Sequence record: OR677401
Reading direction: 5' to 3' (one strand)
Length of the DNA: 64,000 bases
From: Escherichia phage LQ5
Shown here: positions 39,091-50,129 of the stretch, piece after piece
Layout: each line of letters opens with the position of its first letter
Position numbering within the stretch: the stretch's first letter is position 1
Notes under the pieces: model-generated
Database searches by the model: none
Seen by the model: only the letters and a program-made list of their open reading frames with translations
Told to the model about the DNA's origin: nothing
Program-made: the position numbers and the translations under genes

Positions 39091-39252
39091 ATGGCTAAGA
39101 AAGAAGTTAAAGTAGTTGACGGTACCTCTAAACGCGCTGGTTACAAGCGTGCGTCCAACAAGCGTATCAATCAGGTAGTTGATAAGCTTCAAGCTCGTGC
39201 TCGTGCAGTATTGCGTGCAGATGCTGCTTGCTTTGGTAAGCCTCAGGCATAA
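39091..39252 (+). CDS. small basic protein (53 aa), unknown function
   Basis: ATG at 39091; MAKKEVKVVDGTSKRAGYKRASNKRINQVVDKLQARARAVLRADAACFGKPQA; immediately followed by a strong terminator; below track cutoff. Confidence 0.4.
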   Translation: MAKKEVKVVDGTSKRAGYKRASNKRINQVVDKLQARARAVLRADAACFGKPQA

Positions 39253-39257
39253 GTTAT

Positions 39258-39282
39258 GGGACTCTTCGGAGTCCCATTTTTG
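39258..39282 (+). terminator. rho-independent terminator
   Basis: GGGACUC-UUCG-GAGUCCC + AUUUUUG. Confidence 0.75.
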
Positions 39283-40669: not shown

Positions 40670-40882
40670 ATGTTTAAGAAATTGATTCAGAAATTATTAG
40701 GTACGGAAATGGTCGAAGTGACTTATCGTGTAACTGATTTATCTCCTGTGCATCCACAAGATGAACCATATACTAAAACAATTAAAATGCTGAAATCTGA
40801 TGGCGGATTATCTATTGAAGACCGTCTACCTGGTTATGGTCATTGGGCTGATGTCGAAATTATAAGTGTCAAAGATGTCTGA
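40670..40882 (+). CDS. hypothetical small protein
   Basis: 70-aa ORF with GAGGATAATATG. Confidence 0.4.
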   Translation: MFKKLIQKLLGTEMVEVTYRVTDLSPVHPQDEPYTKTIKMLKSDGGLSIEDRLPGYGHWADVEIISVKDV

Positions 40883-41333
40883 GTTAGAAATAAGAAGCAA
40901 TTTTCCATGGCCATCATGTGCATTAAGTAACTTTGCTAAATGGCCTTTCGTTATGGATGGTATCCAATTTGGTGGGCTCGAAGGATTCCTCCAAGGATGT
41001 AAGGTGAGAAATCATGAACAACAAAAACGTATATTTGGGATGTCCGGTCTGGCCGCACAACAAACTGGAAGAGCTTATGCTAGAGCTGCGGACCGTGGGA
41101 CGCTTTTCTGGCTTGGAATTCCCTTTTCAAGATACTCTACAGCATGGAAAGAGTTGTACGAAAATGCTTATTTTGAAGCAGCGCTCCAAAACAAAGGATT
41201 CCGCGACGCATTACAAGCTACAAAGGGCAAAGTTTTAAAGCATTCGATGGCGGGCCACCTTACAGAATGTGATACAATACTAACTGAAAAAGAGTTTATC
41301 GACATCCTAAACAAATTGAGAGATTTATTATGA
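40866..41333 (+). CDS. NADAR-domain (YbiA-like) protein, putative ADP-ribosyl/N-glycosidic hydrolase
   Basis: 155 aa; LSNFAKWPFVMDG...LEGFLQGCKV resembles the E. coli YbiA core FSNFAAWPIKVDG...SEHYFQAQKF as I recall it; call is by motif only. Confidence 0.5.
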   Translation: MSKMSELEIRSNFPWPSCALSNFAKWPFVMDGIQFGGLEGFLQGCKVRNHEQQKRIFGMSGLAAQQTGRAYARAADRGTLFWLGIPFSRYSTAWKELYENAYFEAALQNKGFRDALQATKGKVLKHSMAGHLTECDTILTEKEFIDILNKLRDLL

Positions 41334-41968
41334 AACCAGTTATCTTAACAGATATCGATGGAGTATGTTTAAGTTGGCAGTCCGGCTTGCCTTATTTCGC
41401 ACAGAAATATAATTTGCCTTTAGAACATATTTTGAATATGATTCAGGACGAACGTTTCTTATCTCCTGGTGAGCTGTTTAATTGTGATAATGAATTAGGC
41501 GCTCGTTTAATCGAGAAGTACAATCAGTCAGATTTTATTCGTTATCTGTCTCCTTACATGGACGCATTAAAACATATCAACAAGCTCAAAAAAGACTTCG
41601 ATTTTGTAGCCGTGACTGCGCTAGGCGACTCAATTGATGCACTGCTGAATAGACAATTCAATTTGAATGCTTTGTTCCCTGGCGCATTCAAGGAGATTCT
41701 GATGTGTGGTCATTCAGAATCAAAAGAAGACCTCTTCATAAGAGCTAAAAATACGTACGGTAAACGTATTAAGTTTTATGTTGATGATTTGGCTCACCAC
41801 TGTGATGCTGCATCTAATGTTCTCATGGATATCCAAGTTTATTGGTTAGCTCGTGGTGAACGTGACTTTAAACCTAATTTAGCCGTAAAGGTTAATTCAT
41901 GGGACGATATCGCAGCAATCGAATCCCTTCGTAATAATGCCGCAGTTGAATGGATTGCTCGAGGTTAA
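41330..41968 (+). CDS. HAD-superfamily hydrolase (nucleotidase/phosphatase-like)
   Basis: 212 aa; N-terminal HAD motif I ILTDIDGV; ATGA overlap with the NADAR ORF. Confidence 0.5.
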   Translation: MKPVILTDIDGVCLSWQSGLPYFAQKYNLPLEHILNMIQDERFLSPGELFNCDNELGARLIEKYNQSDFIRYLSPYMDALKHINKLKKDFDFVAVTALGDSIDALLNRQFNLNALFPGAFKEILMCGHSESKEDLFIRAKNTYGKRIKFYVDDLAHHCDAASNVLMDIQVYWLARGERDFKPNLAVKVNSWDDIAAIESLRNNAAVEWIARG

Positions 41969-41969
41969 T

Positions 41970-42248
41970 ATGTTTGTAGTTCATACAATTTCAGACTATG
42001 GTCCTACCACTACAATGGATTATGGTCATGTAAACCAGTTTATTCGTCATGTGAATCATGATTACTCATTTGATGTAAATCCGGCTAAAGACCATCCTGT
42101 TTGGCGCGAATGCGTCGAACAGGGATTCATTTATGTCCACTTTATGTCCAAGTTCAAATCTGATGGGCGAATGAGATTTGTGTTCTCTTATCATAAGCGA
42201 TTAGACTTGCTTTTGGCTGATGTGGCTTATAATAGAATCCATGACTAA
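41970..42248 (+). CDS. hypothetical protein
   Basis: Track ORF 41937..42248; ATG after GAGGTTAAT. Confidence 0.4.
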   Translation: MFVVHTISDYGPTTTMDYGHVNQFIRHVNHDYSFDVNPAKDHPVWRECVEQGFIYVHFMSKFKSDGRMRFVFSYHKRLDLLLADVAYNRIHD

Positions 42249-42258
42249 TGAGGTGATT

Positions 42259-43782
42259 ATGATTTTAGATATTTTAAACGAAATTGCTGCTATTGATTCT
42301 ACTAAAGCTAAAGAAGCCATTATTGCTCGTGAAAAGAACAATGAGCTTCTGAAACGTGTTTATCGTATGGCTTATACCCGTCGTCTGAACTACGGTATTA
42401 AAAAGTGGCCAGAACCTGGATTTACATCTCAATCCTTTGGTATGATTACTCTTGAAGACCTTCTTGATTTCGCTGAATTCACATTAGCCACACGTAAGAT
42501 TACGGGTAATGCGGCTATTGAAGAACTGGCTCAAATCATTGCTGATGCTAAGGCCCCGGATGCCGAGGTATTACGTCGTGTAATGATGCGCGACCTTGAA
42601 TGTGGTGCATCGATTTCTATTGCTAACAAGGTTTGGAAAGGTTTAATCCCTGAACAACCGCAGATGTTGGCGAGTTCTTATGATGAAGCTTTGATTAAGA
42701 AAAATATTAAATGGCCAGCGTTTGCTCAATTAAAAGCTGATGGTGCTCGTTGTTTTGCCGAAGTTCGTAACGATGGTGTGACATTCCTTACTCGTGGTGG
42801 TAACGAATATCAAGGGCTTAATCTTTTGGCGGCTGAATTAATGGCCATGACCGAAGAAGCTCGACAACGCCATCCTAATGGCGTTATGATTGATGGCGAA
42901 TTAGTTTACCATACTCCTAAGGTAGAACCTAAAGCATCTAATGATTTGTTTAGTATGTTTGACGAGGAACTTCCTGAATTAAGTAAGGCTAAGGAATTCC
43001 AAACTGTCGCCGATCGTTCTACGTCAAATGGCTTGGCTAACAAAGCTCTTCAAGGAACTATTTCGGCTACTGAAGCCGCTGGTATGGTATTACAGGCATG
43101 GGATTATGTCCCATTGGATGTCGTATATTCCGAAGGTAAAATTAAAGGCGATAAGTATGATGTACGCTTTACAGCCTTAGAACTTATGGTTGCTCATAAT
43201 GTCGTATTGCATGGTACAACGCGTGTTGAAGCTATCGAAAACCAGTGGGTTAATAATCTTGAAGAAGCTAAAGTCGTTTATAAGAAATATGTCGACCAAG
43301 GTCTGGAAGGCATTATCCTTAAGAACATGGACTCCTACTGGGAAAACCGCCGTTCTAAGAATCTTATCAAGTTCAAAGAAGTAATCGATATCGCTTTAGA
43401 AGTGGTAGGTTATTATGAACACTCGAAGGACCCTAACAAGCTAGGTGGTGTCGAGTTGGTATCACGTTGTCGTCGAATTACAAGCGACTGTGGTTCAGGC
43501 TTTAAAGATACCACCCATAAGAAAGATAAATCAGGTAAAAAGGTATTGATTCCATTGGAAGACCGTCCTGATTTAGACCGTGAACTTCTTATGAAACAAG
43601 CTCGTGAAGGTAAATTGATTGGCCGTATTGCCGACTGTGAATGTAATGGTTGGGTTCATTCTAAAGGACGTACCGATACTGTAGGTATTTTCCTTCCAAT
43701 TATTAAAGGTTGGCGTTTCGATAAAACAGAAGCTGATACATTTGAAGATGTATTTGGTGATTGGTCTCAAACTGGACTATAA
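42259..43782 (+). CDS. 30: ATP-dependent DNA ligase gp30
   Basis: MILDILNEIA.I.STK.K.AI....K.NELLKRVYR..Y.R.L.Y.IKKWP.PG...QSFGM.TL.D.LDF.EFTLATRK.TGNAAIEEL and adenylation site AQLKADGARCFAEVR match T4 gp30; track ORF 42220 over-extended. Confidence 0.92.
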   Translation: MILDILNEIAAIDSTKAKEAIIAREKNNELLKRVYRMAYTRRLNYGIKKWPEPGFTSQSFGMITLEDLLDFAEFTLATRKITGNAAIEELAQIIADAKAPDAEVLRRVMMRDLECGASISIANKVWKGLIPEQPQMLASSYDEALIKKNIKWPAFAQLKADGARCFAEVRNDGVTFLTRGGNEYQGLNLLAAELMAMTEEARQRHPNGVMIDGELVYHTPKVEPKASNDLFSMFDEELPELSKAKEFQTVADRSTSNGLANKALQGTISATEAAGMVLQAWDYVPLDVVYSEGKIKGDKYDVRFTALELMVAHNVVLHGTTRVEAIENQWVNNLEEAKVVYKKYVDQGLEGIILKNMDSYWENRRSKNLIKFKEVIDIALEVVGYYEHSKDPNKLGGVELVSRCRRITSDCGSGFKDTTHKKDKSGKKVLIPLEDRPDLDRELLMKQAREGKLIGRIADCECNGWVHSKGRTDTVGIFLPIIKGWRFDKTEADTFEDVFGDWSQTGL

Positions 43783-44016: not shown

Positions 44017-45912
44017 ATGTCCGAACAATTGAATGAGGTATTTGACGGCGCTATAGATTTATCAGCTGTCAATTTAAACCCTAAACTTAAAGTACCACAG
44101 ATTTGGAATATAAAGGCTGAAGGTAATGAGAACCTTGTTGCACGCATGGTTTCATATACTTCTGAAGGTGATACAATCCGCCAAGTTAAACCGGGTGACA
44201 AATACGTTCATATTATTTTAATGAGCCTATCATCTAAAGGGGCCCCGGCAGAACTCAAAGGTGGTTTAGGTAGTAACCCCATTTCCGCTATTCGTTCTAT
44301 ATTTGATACGGTTTATGAACAAGTTAAAAAGCTCCGTATGGATGCCGTTATGTTCCGTTTTCCTACTAAGAAAATGAAAGGTCAGGAAAAAGCTGTACAA
44401 CGAGTTCTAGCCAAATTAATAGCTACTAGAGCAGGTGGGCAATTCAAGGTCCTTGATGCCTTGTATCAATATACAGGCAAACATTCATATGTTTTTATCT
44501 ATCGTAAAAATAAAAATATAGAATCAATAAACGGTATTCCTAATATTAATCCGGAATTGTATACTAAAGTCGAATCTGAAGTCGGTGATGTGTATGTTTC
44601 AAAGAAAACAGGCGAAGATGTTACCAAATTAGAAGCTATAGCTAAGTCTATAGACGAAATAGAAAAATCACGTTCTGATAAAATGGTTATAACCAAGACT
44701 AAGGTTTCTAAACGGGCCGCTATAAATGCGTTATATTCTACCGCCGAGCCTACAGGATTGAGTAAATTTTCGGCAGAGCACAAAAAAGCTTATGCAGATT
44801 ATTCTGCTACTAGTTCCGTTCATTCTTCTGAAGATTCTAAAGAAAGCCAAATAGCTTTAGCCAGTAATAAAATATTAAAAGACACCTCTAAAGAAATGGC
44901 AGAATATTTGGATTATATTTTTAACGGTGTTAATCCATCATTTGAAGTAGACGAGCGCAAACTTAAACTAATTGCTGATATAAAGTTTGCTTTAGAGGCA
45001 TCAGATTCTTTAGATAAATCTAATAGTGTCATAGAGGCTTTAAAATCAGGTAAATCTCATGTAGACATTCTTAGACTAGTCGCTGCGGCCCTTTTAGATG
45101 ATTCAGTTAAAGGTACTTGGGCTAGAGAATCTAAAATCAAGGAAGTAATAAAATCCTTAGTAGCAGTTTATACAAAATCTATCCAACCGTTGTTTAAGAT
45201 ATCTGATAATCCTAATTTATCCAAACCTCAAGAAGAGGCAGTCAAAAAGTATACTCGTGGCGGCTACAACCATATAAACAACTTTTTGCTAGGTAAAACA
45301 GATACCACCGATGAAATGATAAAAATGATTGGTGAGTTGGATTCTACATTTGAAAATGGTACAAAACTTCCTAAAGGAACCATAGTGTATCGTTCTCAGA
45401 TAATGCCTACCGAAATGGCTTTGAATTCTATAAAACATAAGGTGATGTATCTTCCTATTTTTGCATCAACTTCATTGGCTCCTAATATTTTCGGTGAAAT
45501 GGGTCATGCTCAATCCAACTTAGACCCTGAAGCTCTTTCTAGCGATATAGATAGTAATCTTGAAGACACCATTAAAAGTGCGACCGGAAGTGCTAGAGAT
45601 ACCATTAAGCTAGGGTTAATTATTAAAGGTGCTGATAAAATTAAGGTTATTGTGCCCGGTGACTTGGCTAATTGGTCTACAGAAACCGAAGTAATTCTTC
45701 CTCGTGGGGTTATGCTTAAGATTAATAAAGTATACGGTGCTTCCAAGGGACCTATGGGTTCAATTGGTAAATATGTTTTAGTGGAATGTGAAGTTGTAGC
45801 TACCGAGCAAATCACAGAGGAAAATTCATATAGCACCGGATTCTCGTTTGGAAATTATGATAGAATTATGTATGAAGATTCTATGGAAAAATTAGCAAAT
45901 TTATTTAAATAG
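44017..45912 (+). CDS. Alt-like ADP-ribosyltransferase paralogue 1
   Basis: 631 aa; N-terminal ~230 aa conserved with the two downstream ORFs and T4 Alt; C-terminal mART signature Y-R-S-Q ... F-A-S-T-S ... E-V-I-L-P-R-G. Confidence 0.8.
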   Translation: MSEQLNEVFDGAIDLSAVNLNPKLKVPQIWNIKAEGNENLVARMVSYTSEGDTIRQVKPGDKYVHIILMSLSSKGAPAELKGGLGSNPISAIRSIFDTVYEQVKKLRMDAVMFRFPTKKMKGQEKAVQRVLAKLIATRAGGQFKVLDALYQYTGKHSYVFIYRKNKNIESINGIPNINPELYTKVESEVGDVYVSKKTGEDVTKLEAIAKSIDEIEKSRSDKMVITKTKVSKRAAINALYSTAEPTGLSKFSAEHKKAYADYSATSSVHSSEDSKESQIALASNKILKDTSKEMAEYLDYIFNGVNPSFEVDERKLKLIADIKFALEASDSLDKSNSVIEALKSGKSHVDILRLVAAALLDDSVKGTWARESKIKEVIKSLVAVYTKSIQPLFKISDNPNLSKPQEEAVKKYTRGGYNHINNFLLGKTDTTDEMIKMIGELDSTFENGTKLPKGTIVYRSQIMPTEMALNSIKHKVMYLPIFASTSLAPNIFGEMGHAQSNLDPEALSSDIDSNLEDTIKSATGSARDTIKLGLIIKGADKIKVIVPGDLANWSTETEVILPRGVMLKINKVYGASKGPMGSIGKYVLVECEVVATEQITEENSYSTGFSFGNYDRIMYEDSMEKLANLFK

Positions 45913-45920
45913 GATAGATT

Positions 45921-48002
45921 ATGACCCAATTAAATGAAGTGTTCGAGTCCGAAGGTACACTGCCTGTTGTGAACTTGAACCCAAAACTTAAAGTACCTCA
46001 GATTTGGAAGATTGGAGACGCGGAGTCTCAGTTAGTAGCACGTATGGTATCCTATGCTTCTGAAGGCGATGCTATTAAACAGGTTAAGATGGGTGATAAA
46101 TATGCCCACGTTATCCTTATGAGCCTTTCAGCTAAAGGTTCGCCTGCCGAACTTAAAGGCGGCTTAGGCCCTACTCCTGTAGATGCGATTAATACTATTT
46201 TTGATGTAGTTTATGACCAAGTTAAAAAGCTTCGTATGGATGCCGTGATGTTCCGTTTCCCTACTAAGAAAATGAAAGGTCAAGGCCCTATCGTTCAACG
46301 TATTATCCAACGTTTGGTAGCACAGAAAACCGGTGGACGTTTTAAAGTGGTTCCGGCTATGTACCAATTTACCGGTAAACATACTTACATCCTGGTAGTC
46401 CGTAAACAAGCTGATATCGAAGATATCAAAGGTATGCCTGGAATTAATGCTGAATTGTATACTAAGGTAGATTCTGATGTCGGTGAAGTTTATATTTCCA
46501 AAAAAGAAGGTGTGCAGGTTACTAAAGAAACTGCTATTGCTGGCAGTATTGCTAAGGTTGAAGAACGTCGCACTGATAAAATGGTTATAACCAAGACTAA
46601 GATTTCTAGGCGCGCCATTGCAGCAAGCCAATCATTGGAATCTTATCGTAATGAAAGTGAATTGTTTAAGAAATATGAAGCTACTGCAGCGGATTTTAAT
46701 AAACCGGCAACAGTTCCATTAATCCCTGAGGCTCAGGAAATGGTTACTAATAACAATTCTCCTGCGGCTAAAAATAAGGTTGCTAATATAGTGGCTGAAG
46801 GCACTGCTGAAGAATTGCATTACGATTATAAAATGTTCCCACTTCACGGTATTGGCGAAATCCAAGAGAAAATTAAAGAGAAAATTCTTACAGCAATAAA
46901 AAACGAACCTTTGACATCTGTTAAAGCTCTAGAAAAATATGCCTCTGCTATTAATACCATTTTCGAAGAATATAAAGGCGAGTGGCTGGCTATCCATAAC
47001 AGAACTCGTAAAGGCCAACCTGATGACCTTTGGAACGAATTGACAGAGGCCAAGTGGAAAGCAGCCAAGACTAAGTTCATTAAAAAACGCGTGTATAGTT
47101 TTGCTGGTGTGGGTGGTGGTATTATGGTTGATATTACTATTGCTCGTGAAGGTTCTAAATATACTCCATCACAAAAGCGTGGTATCAGAGAATATTGTGG
47201 TTCAGGATATACAGACATAAATAATCTTCTTTTAGGACGTTATAATCCTCAGAACTATGAGGTTATGAGCGAAAAAGATATCGAATCCGCTGTAAATAAT
47301 TTAGATTTAGCTTTTGAAAATGGTGACCGTATACCGGAAGGCATTACAGTTTATCGTGCCCAGAGTATGACTGCTCCTATATACGAAGCACTAGTTAAAA
47401 ATAAAGTGTTTTATTTTAGAAATTTTGTATCTACTTCTTTAACTCCTATAATTTTCGGACGTTTTGGTGTTACGCACGCTGGTATTGGTCTTTTAGAACC
47501 TGAAGTTCGCAATGAATTGACAGTCGATAAAAATGAAGAAGGAATAACTATTAACCCTAATGAAATAAGAGCGTATAAAGAAAACCCTGATTACGTTAAA
47601 GTTCAAATAGGATGGGCTATTGATGGGGCTCATAAAGTTAATGTCGTATATCCAGGAAATCTCGGAATAGCAACTGAAGCCGAAGTTATTCTACCGCGTG
47701 GATTAATGGTCAAAGTTAATAAAATAACAGATTCTTCTAATAATGATGGAACAACATCTAGTAATACAAAACTCATCCAAGCTGAAGTTATGACAACAGA
47801 TGAGCTTCAAGAATCTGTGGTATATGATGGTGACGTACTAATGGAAACCGGCGAGTTGGTCGTATATCAAGATGACTTCGATACTTCCGAAAGCCCCTTA
47901 TCTTTTGATTCATTTGTTAAATCTACACGGTTTGATGTACTGCCTCTTTTGGCTTCATGCATAGACCTCTATGACATCCCAGAAAAATTCACCCAAGGGT
48001 AA
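45921..48002 (+). CDS. alt: Alt ADP-ribosyltransferase (closest to T4 Alt)
   Basis: 693 aa (T4 Alt 682 aa); blocks KVDSDVGEVYISKK.G.QVTK..AIA.SIA, SKYTP.QKRGIREY.GSGY.DINN.LLG.YNP, VFYFRNFVSTSL, EVILPRGLMVKVNKITD, AEVMTT.EL.ESV.YDGD.LMETGELV. Confidence 0.88.
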   Translation: MTQLNEVFESEGTLPVVNLNPKLKVPQIWKIGDAESQLVARMVSYASEGDAIKQVKMGDKYAHVILMSLSAKGSPAELKGGLGPTPVDAINTIFDVVYDQVKKLRMDAVMFRFPTKKMKGQGPIVQRIIQRLVAQKTGGRFKVVPAMYQFTGKHTYILVVRKQADIEDIKGMPGINAELYTKVDSDVGEVYISKKEGVQVTKETAIAGSIAKVEERRTDKMVITKTKISRRAIAASQSLESYRNESELFKKYEATAADFNKPATVPLIPEAQEMVTNNNSPAAKNKVANIVAEGTAEELHYDYKMFPLHGIGEIQEKIKEKILTAIKNEPLTSVKALEKYASAINTIFEEYKGEWLAIHNRTRKGQPDDLWNELTEAKWKAAKTKFIKKRVYSFAGVGGGIMVDITIAREGSKYTPSQKRGIREYCGSGYTDINNLLLGRYNPQNYEVMSEKDIESAVNNLDLAFENGDRIPEGITVYRAQSMTAPIYEALVKNKVFYFRNFVSTSLTPIIFGRFGVTHAGIGLLEPEVRNELTVDKNEEGITINPNEIRAYKENPDYVKVQIGWAIDGAHKVNVVYPGNLGIATEAEVILPRGLMVKVNKITDSSNNDGTTSSNTKLIQAEVMTTDELQESVVYDGDVLMETGELVVYQDDFDTSESPLSFDSFVKSTRFDVLPLLASCIDLYDIPEKFTQG

Positions 48003-48005
48003 ATA

Positions 48006-50129
48006 ATGGAAAATTTAAACGAAGTTTTTGATAGCGATTCCGCTAAAAACTATCCGGTAACAAATCTTAAACCTGGCTCAGGCGTACCGCAGATTTTTGC
48101 GGTACATGCTCCTGGTAATGACAATTTAGTAGCACGTATGGTATCTTATGCGTCTGAAGGCGATGCTATTAAAATGGTTAAGCCAGGCGATAAGTACGTC
48201 CATGTCATCCTAATGAGTTTATCTGCTAAAGGCGCCCCGGCAGAACTCAAGGGTGGTTTGGGTACCGATCCACTCGGTACACTGAACACCATTTTCGATA
48301 CCATATATGAACAAATAAACAAACTTAAAATGGACGCGGTTTTGTTCCGTTTCCCTACTAAGAAAATGAAAGGTAAAGGTCCTACCGTTCAGCGCGTATT
48401 AGCTCGCTTGGCTATGGCTCGTACCGGTGGTAAGTTTAAAGTTGTTGACGACATGTTCCAATTCAGCGGAAAACATACCTACGCTCTTTTAGTACGTCGT
48501 GGTGCTAATATTGAAGATATCAAGGGTATGCCTGAAATTAATGCCGATCTTTATACTAAAGTTGAGTCTAAAGTTGGCGAAGTTTATGTTTCTAAGAAAA
48601 CCGGCCAGGCCGTAAGTAAGGTCGAAGCCGTAGCGGCATCTATTGCACAAGTTGAAGAGAAACGTACTGATAAGGCTGTCATTACTCGTACTAAGATTTC
48701 GCGTCGTATGGCAGCGGCGGCGCAGTATTCTACTGCTGAGCCTGAAACTTTGTCCCCTAAAGAATTGCAGGTTTATAACGAGTTTGAAGCTTCTGTACCG
48801 GTTCACACGGCTGAAGGCCCTGAGAACGAAGGTATTGAACAGATTAGTCAGAACTTTAAAAAAGGTGCCATTACTAAAATGCGTCAGGCTTCTCAGTTTA
48901 AATCTAAGAGCGAGGACCTTGCCAACTTTAGATACACTATTGCTCTCACACACGCTTTAATGACTGATAGTAAATTTAAACTAAATTATGCTAATAGAGA
49001 TAAACAAGGGTTTGAAATTTACTCTAATAATATGGCATTTTTTAATACAGAAGTCGATAGACTTTTAAGTGGCCTTTCGCAAATCAATACAACCAATAGT
49101 CTGGATATTATTAAGAAAATTGTTAATAACCTGAGTACCCGTTTTAAGGGTTCCCCTTCAGAGAAAGCATCTAGAATTGCTTTCGCTATGGAAGCCGTTT
49201 ATAAACTGGTTAACGATTCTATTAGTGATGCATATGCTTATTCAGGCGAGCTCATTAAACCTAAGGACCTAACCAAAGATGAAAGCAATGCTATTATTGA
49301 ATATTGCGCGGCTGAATATGCTCCTATGAACTTATTCCTTTTAGGTAAACCTGAATCCGAAAACAATACAACGGCTATTAAATTGATTAAGGATTTAGAC
49401 TCAGCATTTACTAAGGGTATTAAACTTCCTAAGGGTACTATTTTGTATCGTGGTCAGGATTTGCCATACAAAATTCTGCGCCATAATATCGATAACAAAA
49501 CATTTTACTTTAAGAACTTTGTGTCAGCCTCATTAAAGCCTAACATCTTTGGTGAATTCGGTAAAAATTATATGGCCCTCGACAACCAAGCCGTTTTTGT
49601 TGGTGGTGAAGGTTCTTTGTCCTCCGCTGATGAGTTGTTTAAATTGGCTAGTGGTAGTTCATCTGATGTGGGTGAAGTCGATGACGAAGAGGTAGAATGG
49701 GAAGAAGACGAGTTTGGTAATCCAATTGCACCTGAAGGTCCTGCAGATAGAATTGCTGAAATTGGTATGGTTATTCGAGGTGCTGAAGCAGTTAAAGTTA
49801 TCGCTCCTGGTGACCTTACAGAATATGCCGAAGAAGCAGAAATTATCCTTCCGCGTGGATTATTGTTGAAGGTTGATAAAGTAGCGGCTTTTGCCATGAA
49901 TGATAGAGTATCTCACAAATACCTTATGGAAGCTACCGTAACACCTCCTTCAGAGCTCAGCGAATCTGTTTACGATGGTGACCATTTGATGGAAACTGGT
50001 GAAGTTCGCCTGATGGATGGATTTAGTCAATTCTTGGTTAATGAATCCGTTTCTGAAAGCAACGAAGCTATGGAAATCCTTGCCGCGTCTTTGGATATCT
50101 CTTCTTTATCAAATAAATTCAAAATGTAG
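48006..50129 (+). CDS. Alt-like ADP-ribosyltransferase paralogue 3
   Basis: 707 aa; same N-terminal module and R/S-x-S/E mART signature (ILYRGQ, FVSASL, EIILPRGLLLKV); distinct acidic insert (DDEEVEWEEDEFG). Confidence 0.8.
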   Translation: MENLNEVFDSDSAKNYPVTNLKPGSGVPQIFAVHAPGNDNLVARMVSYASEGDAIKMVKPGDKYVHVILMSLSAKGAPAELKGGLGTDPLGTLNTIFDTIYEQINKLKMDAVLFRFPTKKMKGKGPTVQRVLARLAMARTGGKFKVVDDMFQFSGKHTYALLVRRGANIEDIKGMPEINADLYTKVESKVGEVYVSKKTGQAVSKVEAVAASIAQVEEKRTDKAVITRTKISRRMAAAAQYSTAEPETLSPKELQVYNEFEASVPVHTAEGPENEGIEQISQNFKKGAITKMRQASQFKSKSEDLANFRYTIALTHALMTDSKFKLNYANRDKQGFEIYSNNMAFFNTEVDRLLSGLSQINTTNSLDIIKKIVNNLSTRFKGSPSEKASRIAFAMEAVYKLVNDSISDAYAYSGELIKPKDLTKDESNAIIEYCAAEYAPMNLFLLGKPESENNTTAIKLIKDLDSAFTKGIKLPKGTILYRGQDLPYKILRHNIDNKTFYFKNFVSASLKPNIFGEFGKNYMALDNQAVFVGGEGSLSSADELFKLASGSSSDVGEVDDEEVEWEEDEFGNPIAPEGPADRIAEIGMVIRGAEAVKVIAPGDLTEYAEEAEIILPRGLLLKVDKVAAFAMNDRVSHKYLMEATVTPPSELSESVYDGDHLMETGEVRLMDGFSQFLVNESVSESNEAMEILAASLDISSLSNKFKM

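Follow-up and report, generated by a model that had tools for sequence, protein, structure and literature searches.

A predicted ortholog of the T4 anti-DarT gene adfN and its HAD phosphatase neighbor in the Dhakavirus phage LQ5

The window analyzed here, a stretch of 64,000 nucleotides from Escherichia phage LQ5 (sequence record OR677401), belongs to a Dhakavirus, a T4-like phage, and shares 99.5% identity with phages PSD9 and QL01. Genes in the region considered follow the T4 order (30.5-30.4-30.3-30.2-30.1-30-alt), and the 8-nt and 4-nt overlaps seen in T4 recur here. The relevant features are the following.

40670..40882, plus strand: gp30.4 ortholog, 70 aa (phrog_2042, E 3.6e-34; 46% identity to T4 gp30.4)
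40875..41333, plus strand: adfN (gp30.3 ortholog), predicted 152-aa phage-type NADAR (PF08010, E 1.2e-63)
41014..41238, plus strand: 30.3', a 74-codon ORF in the +1 frame inside adfN (61% identity to T4 30.3')
41330..41333, plus strand: ATGA overlap between the adfN stop codon (TGA) and the gp30.2 start codon (ATG), read from the sequence
41330..41968, plus strand: gp30.2 ortholog, predicted 212-aa HAD-superfamily phosphatase with a helical C1 cap
41970..42248, plus strand: gp30.1 ortholog (DUF3045; PF11243, E 5.9e-16)
42259..43782, plus strand: gene 30, ATP-dependent DNA ligase (PF01068, E 1.5e-23; QL01 gene model, 1524 nt)
44017..45912, plus strand: first of three tandem Alt-like ADP-ribosyltransferase genes (PF03496, E 8e-14)
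45921..48002, plus strand: second Alt-like gene (PF03496, E 9e-35)
48006..50129, plus strand: third Alt-like gene (PF03496, E 3e-17)

The 3' end of the gp30.4 ortholog overlaps the start of adfN by 8 nt, and the 4-nt overlap between adfN and gp30.2 is identical in T4, according to the coordinates of the T4 record. Overlaps of these two lengths are usual across the gene block around adfN, both here and in T4, and the ATGA junction is ordinary T4 gene packing. A promoter and terminator scan of the interval from 38.4 to 44.1 kb found promoter-like sites at a frequency not above that of shuffled sequences, and no internal signal that would convincingly separate adfN from gp30.2. An earlier note on this DNA had placed the pair directly upstream of the DNA ligase gene; in fact, the 30.1/DUF3045 gene intervenes (the PF11243 match begins at residue 12 of the program-made ORF, and the RefSeq QL01 model measures 279 nt). 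The ADP-ribosyltransferase array mentioned in the same note is indeed present as three tandem Alt-like ORFs spanning 44017..50129, all of which match PF03496; the middle protein (45921..48002) aligns with T4 Alt along its entire length at 47% identity. In PSD9, QL01, WG01 and the other closest GenBank/RefSeq genomes, the orthologs of both adfN and 30.2 are annotated "hypothetical protein".

An overlapping frame inside the gene, 30.3', carries annotation in T4. In LQ5 as in T4, this frame stays open for 76 codons, where codon shuffles would predict about 44, and it is closed in most diverged adfN homologs. Since it is open only in close T-evens and lacks conservation in the diverged homologs, we treat 30.3' as unsupported; it was rejected as a real overlapping gene and is probably not a gene.

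Both ORFs of the pair are as previously described: the first contains the motifs LSNFAKWPFVMDG and LEGFLQGCKV, the second ILTDIDGV, and the two meet in the ATGA at 41330-41333. The start of the first ORF had been put at the GTG at position 40866 and needs correction. The gene actually begins with the ATG at 40875, yielding a protein of 152 aa, because the T4 and RefSeq QL01 models are both 459 nt long with an 8-nt overlap with 30.4, and because the catalytic residues then carry the numbers published for T4, E36 and K43. The assignment to the NADAR family, originally made from recall of motifs, is upheld. The ORF matches PF08010 (Phage_30_3), not an unrelated fold, with 213.4 bits (cut-off, 36 bits) over model positions 2-138 of 138; 14 of the 49 family members are also matched by the Pfam NADAR model, PF08719. 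LQ5 AdfN and T4 gp30.3 are of the same length and align without gaps, with 129 of 152 residues identical (85%); none of the 23 differences affects an invariant family position. E36, K43 and H123, the latter within the sequence VLKHS, are invariant in an alignment of 49 sequences that includes homologs down to 35% identity, and when a profile is aligned to PDB sequences, E36 and K43 fall on the SEHYFQAQK motif of YbiA. The protein has the catalytic Glu characteristic of NADARs (E43 in PnNADAR, equivalent to T4 E36) and the Lys seven residues downstream (K43). The gp30.3 family constitutes the superfamily's "phage NADAR" branch, whose last strand has a His where YbiA-type proteins have a Glu and DarG1-type proteins an Asp (PMC11125620; PMC11543638). 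LQ5 AdfN combines this last-strand His with a PF08010 score above threshold. Searching NCBIfam with AdfN and gp30.2 produced nothing usable, and PADLOC models gave no match to AdfN, gp30.2 or gp30.4.

The structural model agrees with this assignment. As predicted by AF2 (pLDDT 94.6), AdfN has a helical core flanked by small beta hairpins, a fold of the NADAR/YbiA type, and its sole significant or probable PDB matches are NADAR structures: 2B3W (YbiA), 8BAU (PnNADAR) and 8BAT (the NADAR of G. lovleyi DarG1). The best of these is YbiA (Foldseek E 1e-4, TM 0.68), the very comparison that the earlier note had proposed. A C-terminal helix spanning residues 138-151 is predicted with high confidence, and the protein aligns end to end with T4. 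An RB69 frameshift allele that is 15 residues short is defective, which makes an intact C-terminal helix a hallmark of AdfN; the LQ5 protein is full length and retains this helix. Judging from its sequence, ORF 40875..41333 is orthologous to T4 adfN (gene 30.3) and is predicted to encode a single-domain, minimal NADAR.

The anti-DarTG1 biology of this gene is already published for T4. Johannesman et al. (Nat Commun 2025; PMC11825919) renamed gp30.3 AdfN, for anti-DarT factor NADAR, and showed that DarTG1 resistance requires adfN, as seen with deletions in T4 and T2, and that the gene also suffices for it. The E36A and K43A substitutions and a C-terminal truncation each impair T4 AdfN, and the protein, once purified, strips ADP-ribose from DNA modified by DarT1 (PMC11825919). 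In vitro, T4 AdfN cleaves guanosine-ADPr and not thymidine-ADPr (PMC11125620). Independent confirmation of the role against DarTG1 comes from a published transposon table (HIDEN-SEQ), in which T4 adfN insertions are lost under DarTG1 (log2FC -7.25, padj 0). The anti-DarT counter-defence suggested in the earlier note has thus been demonstrated in experiments on the T4 ortholog, which is 85% identical, and by analogy the LQ5 allele would act like T4 AdfN. For this reading, orthology, residues, fold and gene order were obtained from LQ5, and enzyme activity and the DarTG1 phenotype from T4. T4 AdfN does not rescue uninfected E. coli from DarT1 toxicity and rescues non-T-even phages only partly; a further T-even factor therefore contributes to its activity (PMC11825919), which renders the mechanism as stated incomplete. 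Furthermore, DarT1 variants differ, and resistance to one system is no guarantee of resistance to others.

One could envision that the NADAR protein acts mainly on small molecules, be they ADP-ribose-derived immune signals or riboflavin intermediates of the kind handled by YbiA. The E. coli YbiA protein is an N-glycosidase of riboflavin intermediates, and AdfN gives a very weak match to TIGR02464 ("riboflavin fusion"; E 0.12). This match amounts to 12.6 bits, however, against a cut-off of 73.7 bits; H123 occupies the place of the Glu that defines YbiA, and the DNA de-ADP-ribosylation assay and DarTG1 genetics of the T4 ortholog speak directly against the idea. A small-molecule role has already been largely refuted for T4 AdfN, and we find it highly improbable here. 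The nucleotide-salvage role envisaged for the NADAR in the earlier note likewise found no support.

The second member of the pair, gp30.2, matches phrog_420 with E 1.5e-70, which like the PF08010 match of AdfN lies well beyond chance, and possesses the complete set of HAD motifs (DxD, T, K and DD): D8, D10, K132, D152 and D153 are invariant among 50 homologs, and T96 (motif II) is conserved in at least 90% of them. Its predicted structure is a confident HAD fold, a Rossmannoid core with a C1 cap after motif I. The HAD assignment made in the earlier note is therefore sound, and gp30.2 is predicted to be a catalytically competent HAD phosphatase. Its substrate may be a nucleotide or a sugar-phosphate; structural matches of the model do not discriminate among HAD subfamilies. 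With the NT5C model (PF06941) the protein scores 13.4 bits, below the 24.8-bit threshold, and any NT5C match at all is seen in only 9 of 50 family members (best E 0.002). Sequence searches of the PDB returned sub-threshold hits, the best meaningful one being to the deoxyribonucleotidase cdN (2JAO), with E 0.25 for the single sequence and E 0.095 for the 50-sequence profile, and gave no substrate assignment. A literature search under "gp30.2" found nothing, and a broader one gave noise. The gene is non-essential in T4, according to published transposon data, and gp30.2, a conserved, complete HAD phosphatase, counts among the approximately 100 T4 genes still without function.

Does the close linkage of adfN and gp30.2 reflect a functional pairing? 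In such a two-enzyme module, the HAD protein would process the released ADP-ribose or its phosphorylated remnant, or else potentiate AdfN. The ATGA overlap is kept in both T4 and LQ5, both genes are near-core in Straboviridae and nearly alike in distribution (1510 versus 1437 phage records, with matching genus counts), and the extra T-even factor needed for full AdfN activity (PMC11825919) could be sought in gp30.2. Against this, short overlaps of 4 and 8 nt typify the entire gene block, and AdfN purified alone is active in vitro. Moreover, adjacency is lost beyond the close T-evens. We examined 80 AdfN-family loci in IMG/VR for a gp30.2 homolog within 4 kb and found one in 24: 16 overlap or abut the AdfN-family gene, an arrangement limited to close T-evens (and L015), and 8, from more distant T4-like loci, lie 0.7-1.2 kb away. 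No homolog was found within 4 kb in the other 56 loci (one of them truncated), several complete T4-like genomes included. The genetic data point the same way: T4 30.2 insertions are neutral under DarTG1 (log2FC -0.12, p 0.61, 71 sites; HIDEN-SEQ), as opposed to the -7.25 value for 30.3. Neither the conserved adjacency nor the shared phenotype that would mark a two-gene system is thus found, and on these two grounds, adjacency decay and neutral insertions, we rejected a functional link between the NADAR and HAD proteins. The existing data separate gp30.2 genetically from the DarTG1 phenotype; a two-enzyme module appears very unlikely, and gp30.2 is an ordinary conserved neighbor of adfN rather than a demonstrated partner.

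If the T-even factor required for full AdfN activity were encoded beside adfN, the 30.4 gene (40670..40882) would be a better candidate than the HAD protein. Homologs of 30.4 are confined to the 14 close T-even loci, the group in which T4 AdfN is fully active, and T4 30.4 insertions are moderately yet significantly depleted under DarTG1 (log2FC -1.79, padj 0.014, in the same published table). The authors of that study made no comment on the 30.4 depletion and argued that polar effects are rare. We nonetheless regard this arrangement as very unlikely; a weaker variant of it would have gp30.2 assist against a different ADP-ribosylating defence.

The three Alt-like genes, 2.7 kb downstream, raise yet another scenario, in which the NADAR would undo ADP-ribosylation that the phage's own enzymes inflict on nucleic acids as a side effect. 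Alt-family enzymes are known as protein ADP-ribosyltransferases. On hosts without DarTG1, T4 alt and adfN insertions are both neutral in the transposon data, and loss of AdfN is therefore not toxic to a phage carrying Alt. The genomic closeness of the three Alt paralogs to adfN would favor the scenario, as would the observation that T4-like NADARs are early genes co-expressed with ADP-ribosyltransferases (PMC9503650); however, the proximity of adfN and alt is inherited T4 synteny. We consider this scenario barely credible. Altogether, the idea that the HAD, ligase or Alt genes form a functional unit with the NADAR is unsupported, given the inherited T4 synteny, the decaying adjacency and the lack of a DarTG1 phenotype for T4 30.2.

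It is thus very probable that the locus carries an adfN ortholog that counters DarTG1, with gp30.2 as an independent neighbor. By this account, host DarT1 would ADP-ribosylate the N2 of guanines in replicating phage DNA; by orthology, AdfN would hydrolyse the N-glycosidic bond between ribose and guanine, releasing ADP-ribose and restoring the base, so that phage replication could go on. AdfN would in effect be an "orphan antitoxin" carried by the phage. E36 and K43 would hold the distal ribose during catalysis, H123 stands where YbiA-type NADARs carry a Glu and DarG1-type NADARs an Asp, and full activity would require the C-terminal helix (residues 138-151). The gp30.2 phosphatase would share the tightly packed transcription unit with adfN and be independent of it in DarTG1 counter-defence. 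ORF 40875..41333 can be confidently named adfN, which fixes the annotation and predicts resistance to DarTG1-type defences in Dhakavirus phages; the LQ5 gene extends a characterized counter-defence family by one intact, diverged allele.

Comparison with known systems places the two proteins differently. T4 gp30.2 (NP_049815) has the same position and ATGA overlap as its LQ5 counterpart and is 74% identical to it over the HAD domain, but possesses about 85 extra C-terminal residues, a tail that is hypervariable across the family. The NT5C 5'(3')-deoxyribonucleotidases (cdN/mdN, 2JAO, 4MUM, 6G2N; bacterial 3BWV) share with gp30.2 the HAD fold, a small helical cap, the DxDGV...[W/F]xSGL sequence after motif I and the DD of motif IV. 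They provide its best meaningful sequence-level PDB/Pfam match, yet one below every curated threshold, with 14-18% identity and structural scores no better than those of many unrelated HAD phosphatases and dehalogenases.

As for AdfN, E. coli YbiA (2B3W), the founding NADAR/DUF1768 member, has the LSNF...E..FQ..K motif in common with it, but is only 18% identical and carries a Glu where AdfN has H123; LQ5 AdfN shows neither the last-strand Glu nor the TIGR02464 equivalog score of the YbiA family. YbiA, whose N-glycosidase activity serves riboflavin intermediates, affords no protection against DarT1 in vivo (PMC11125620). The DarG1/BC4488-type NADAR antitoxins (G. lovleyi 8BAT, E. coli C7 NADAR) are reported to form the clade nearest the T4 family (PMC11825919). 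They share the NADAR core fold with LQ5 AdfN and the chemistry of its family, removal of ADP-ribose from guanine N2, but have a catalytic Asp, are extended at the N terminus and share an operon with DarT1, whereas LQ5 AdfN has H123, consists of the 152-aa core only and is flanked by the phage genes 30.4 and 30.2, with no adjacent DarT toxin. In uninfected cells, T4 AdfN cannot replace DarG1. The closest likeness is to T4 AdfN itself (NP_049816), which is also 152 aa long, occupies the same slot with the same overlaps and has E36, K43, H123 and the C-terminal helix; the LQ5 genome differs from that of T4 in its three Alt paralogs and shorter gp30.2.

The window is a segment of a T4-like phage genome: the 1.7 kb round adfN (the ortholog of T4 gene 30.3) and gp30.2 share 99.5% identity with Shigella phage PSD9 and 99.3% with Escherichia phage QL01 (Straboviridae; Tevenvirinae; Dhakavirus). 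The local gene order, 31, rIII, 30.9-30.4, 30.3, 30.2, 30.1, 30 (DNA ligase) and alt, is colinear with that of T4. The genes of immediate concern are these:

40670..40882, + strand: gp30.4 ortholog (comparison with T4 gp30.4)
40875..41333, + strand: adfN, gp30.3 ortholog (PF08010 match, T4 identity)
41330..41968, + strand: gp30.2 ortholog, HAD protein (phrog_420 match, HAD motifs)
41970..42248, + strand: gene 30.1, DUF3045 (Pfam match position and QL01 gene model)
42259..43782, + strand: gene 30, DNA ligase (Pfam match position and QL01 gene model)

The earlier note had proposed a NADAR reading frame at 40866..41333. The frame is present, but its start is the ATG at 40875 (152 aa), the GTG at 40866 being only a mechanical listing. 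The ATG agrees with the T4 gene, with the 459-nt RefSeq QL01 model and with the residue numbers used in publications, and starting there gives an 8-nt overlap with the end of gene 30.4. The second frame (212 aa) does begin within the ATGA that ends adfN, as had been noticed; the pair does not, however, lie directly upstream of ligase, as gene 30.1 intervenes. The mechanical frames of 30.1 (41937..42248) and ligase (42220..43782) start too far 5'; with the real starts, these genes lack the overlap implied by the list of frames. The ADP-ribosyltransferase array described nearby is genuine, and consists of three tandem Alt-like genes at 44017..50129. All three are full-length (631, 693 and 707 aa) and match PF03496, and the middle copy is the ortholog of T4 Alt (47% identity). 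In T4 there is a single alt, with alt.-1 and alt.-2 as short duplicated fragments.

Two other features of the locus deserve mention. A strong intrinsic-terminator-like hairpin lies at 39256..39277 (+), directly 3' of a small ORF (39091..39252); its 9-bp stem contains 5 GC pairs and carries a 4-nt loop, TTCG, and a T-run follows. It separates rIII from the 30.8-30.3 block, and could be a boundary between transcription units on the 5' side of adfN. Within adfN, an ORF in the +1 frame (41014..41238, +; 74 codons from ATG) is the counterpart of the annotated T4 30.3' (61% identity). This frame is open for 76 codons in the window and T4, against about 44 expected by codon shuffling (p ~0.03), but most of the diverged AdfN homologs do not keep it open, which leaves a genuine overlapping gene unsupported.

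The assignment of AdfN to the NADAR family, originally made from motif recall, proved correct. A Pfam search assigns the protein to PF08010 ("Bacteriophage protein GP30.3"; E 1.2e-63, 213 bits, cut-off 36 bits), and it aligns with T4 gp30.3 over all 152 residues at 85% identity with no gaps. Among 49 homologs, down to 35% identity, invariant positions include L17-S18-N19-F20, E36-G37-F38, K43 and H123. The best PDB sequence match of this 49-homolog profile is Escherichia coli YbiA, with the catalytic residues E36 and K43 falling on the YbiA motif SEHYFQAQK, and 14 of the 49 family members individually match Pfam NADAR PF08719 (best E 1.5e-7). The AlphaFold2 model is confident (pLDDT 94.6, pTM 0.89) and includes an intact C-terminal helix (residues 138-151). 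Its top Foldseek match in the PDB is YbiA 2B3W (E 1e-4, TM 0.68), followed by 8BAU, a Phytophthora NADAR with ADP-ribose, and 8BAT, the NADAR of Geobacter lovleyi DarG1; beyond these three solved NADAR structures, nothing in the PDB exceeded a probability of 0.04. Every sequence and fold comparison thus places the protein in the NADAR superfamily and the gp30.3/AdfN family.

The anti-DarT role suggested for this gene has been published for T4. Gene 30.3 was found genetically as the T-even determinant of DarTG1 resistance and renamed adfN, for anti-DarT factor NADAR; its deletion makes T4 and T2 sensitive to DarTG1, and its expression rescues RB69, in which a frameshift has removed the final 15 residues of the phage's own copy (PMC11825919). 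E36A, K43A and C-terminal truncation impair T4 AdfN; when purified, the protein strips ADP-ribose from DNA modified by DarT1, and it is ineffective against DarTG2, which modifies thymidine (PMC11825919). An independent study found that the T4 protein hydrolyses guanosine-ADPr in vitro but not thymidine-ADPr (PMC11125620). The methods of that paper give the "T4 phage NADAR (gp30.3)" construct as residues 1-208, whereas reference T4 gp30.3 has 152 aa; the construct may be another phage's protein or carry extra sequence. A 2026 study lists cytidine-ADPr as a target that NADAR and YbiA-type enzymes remove and phage NADAR does not (PMC12945103). In T4 transposon sequencing, adfN insertions were completely lost on a DarTG1 host (log2FC -7.25, adjusted p 0, in the supplementary DarTG1 table). 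As the window allele retains all residues known to matter in T4 AdfN, including the C-terminal helix, it most likely acts by the same mechanism, and by analogy with T4 would have the same activity and phenotype. Host DarT1 would modify guanines of the phage DNA with ADP-ribose; AdfN would most likely cleave the ribose-N2-guanine bond, restoring the template for replication. The finding, though correct, thus repeats published work: gp30.3 has been described as a NADAR from the definition of the superfamily onwards (PMC11125620, PMC11543638), and its role against DarT was established in 2024-2025.

The neighbouring gp30.2 matches phrog_420, a family of unknown function (E 1.5e-70), and over residues 1-191 it shares 74% identity with T4 gp30.2, which has about 85 more C-terminal residues. 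The HAD assignment holds: across 50 homologs the four motifs are conserved (I, D8-x-D10-G11; II, T96; III, K132; IV, D152-D153), the second Asp of motif I marking phosphatases as opposed to dehalogenases, and W16, S18, R108, N111 and R175 are also invariant. The sole recurrent specific sequence signal, NT5C/cdN, is always sub-threshold (Pfam, 13.4 versus 24.8 bits; profile against 2JAO, E 0.095), although the stretch aligned to 2JAO shares DGV..[W/F]xSGL. We would guess at a phosphatase acting on nucleotides or sugar phosphates. The C-terminal tail (window ~41900..41968) is hypervariable among T4-like phages, at 0 to ~130 residues; the window protein is short (212 aa versus 278 aa in T4). Identity is discontinuous, at least 95% in 49 phage records and at most 80% in all others, a pattern that points to an allele peculiar to the genus or to a 3' end replaced by recombination.

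One could envision adfN and gp30.2 as a functional pair, since T4 has the ATGA overlap too and the two are near-core genes of T4-like phages whose taxonomic ranges almost coincide (1510 versus 1437 phage records). However, overlaps of 4-8 nt are the rule across the gene block, so that this one is not specific to the pair. Among 80 AdfN-family loci from IMG/VR, the genes overlap or abut in 16 (close T-evens and locus L015) and are 0.7-1.2 kb apart in 8 more distant T4-like loci, while in 55 complete loci, several of them entire T4-like genomes of ~170 kb, gp30.2 has no homolog within 4 kb; one locus, L014, stops inside adfN. Moreover, AdfN purified alone is active in vitro (PMC11825919, PMC11125620), and T4 30.2 is non-essential (72 of 72 sites hit), its insertions being neutral on DarTG1 (log2FC -0.12, p 0.61, 71 sites). 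We reject the pairing and conclude that gp30.2 is a syntenic neighbour, outside DarTG1 counter-defence.

T4 AdfN fails to neutralise DarT1 when cells are uninfected, and its rescue of non-T-even phages is partial; its discoverers infer from this an unknown T-even factor (PMC11825919). A candidate for this helper, on the less likely of two readings of the transposon data, is gp30.4. In the T4 transposon table, 30.4 insertions are significantly depleted on DarTG1 (log2FC -1.79, adjusted p 0.014); 30.5 is not significant (log2FC -3.00), and 30.6 and 30.7 are unaffected. Homologs of 30.4 are limited to close T-even loci (14/80), and the T4 and window proteins share only 46% identity. The depletion is most simply read as a polar effect on translation of adfN, whose start lies within 30.4; the text of the transposon paper leaves 30.4 unmentioned and argues that polar effects are uncommon. 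Several near-identical relatives, among them WG01, PSD2002 and LHE83, have 222 bp inserted here in comparison with the window. In Escherichia phage WG01 (locus L083, 271..705; equivalent to window ~40670) the insertion forms a second ORF of 213 nt, in tandem with the 30.4-like gene and immediately 5' of adfN.

The practical value of these results lies in re-annotating "hypothetical protein" entries in Dhakavirus genomes. Within the superfamily, the "phage NADAR" branch is defined by a His at the site occupied by Glu in YbiA-type and by Asp in DarG1-type enzymes (PMC11125620, PMC11543638). PADLOC returned no match for window AdfN, and TIGR02464 scored far below cut-off. We considered and rejected both other types: DarG1-type antitoxins have the Asp, an N-terminal extension and a DarT partner, none of which accompanies window AdfN, and YbiA-type enzymes have the Glu, whereas the window protein carries H123 at this site and is a member of the phage NADAR branch.
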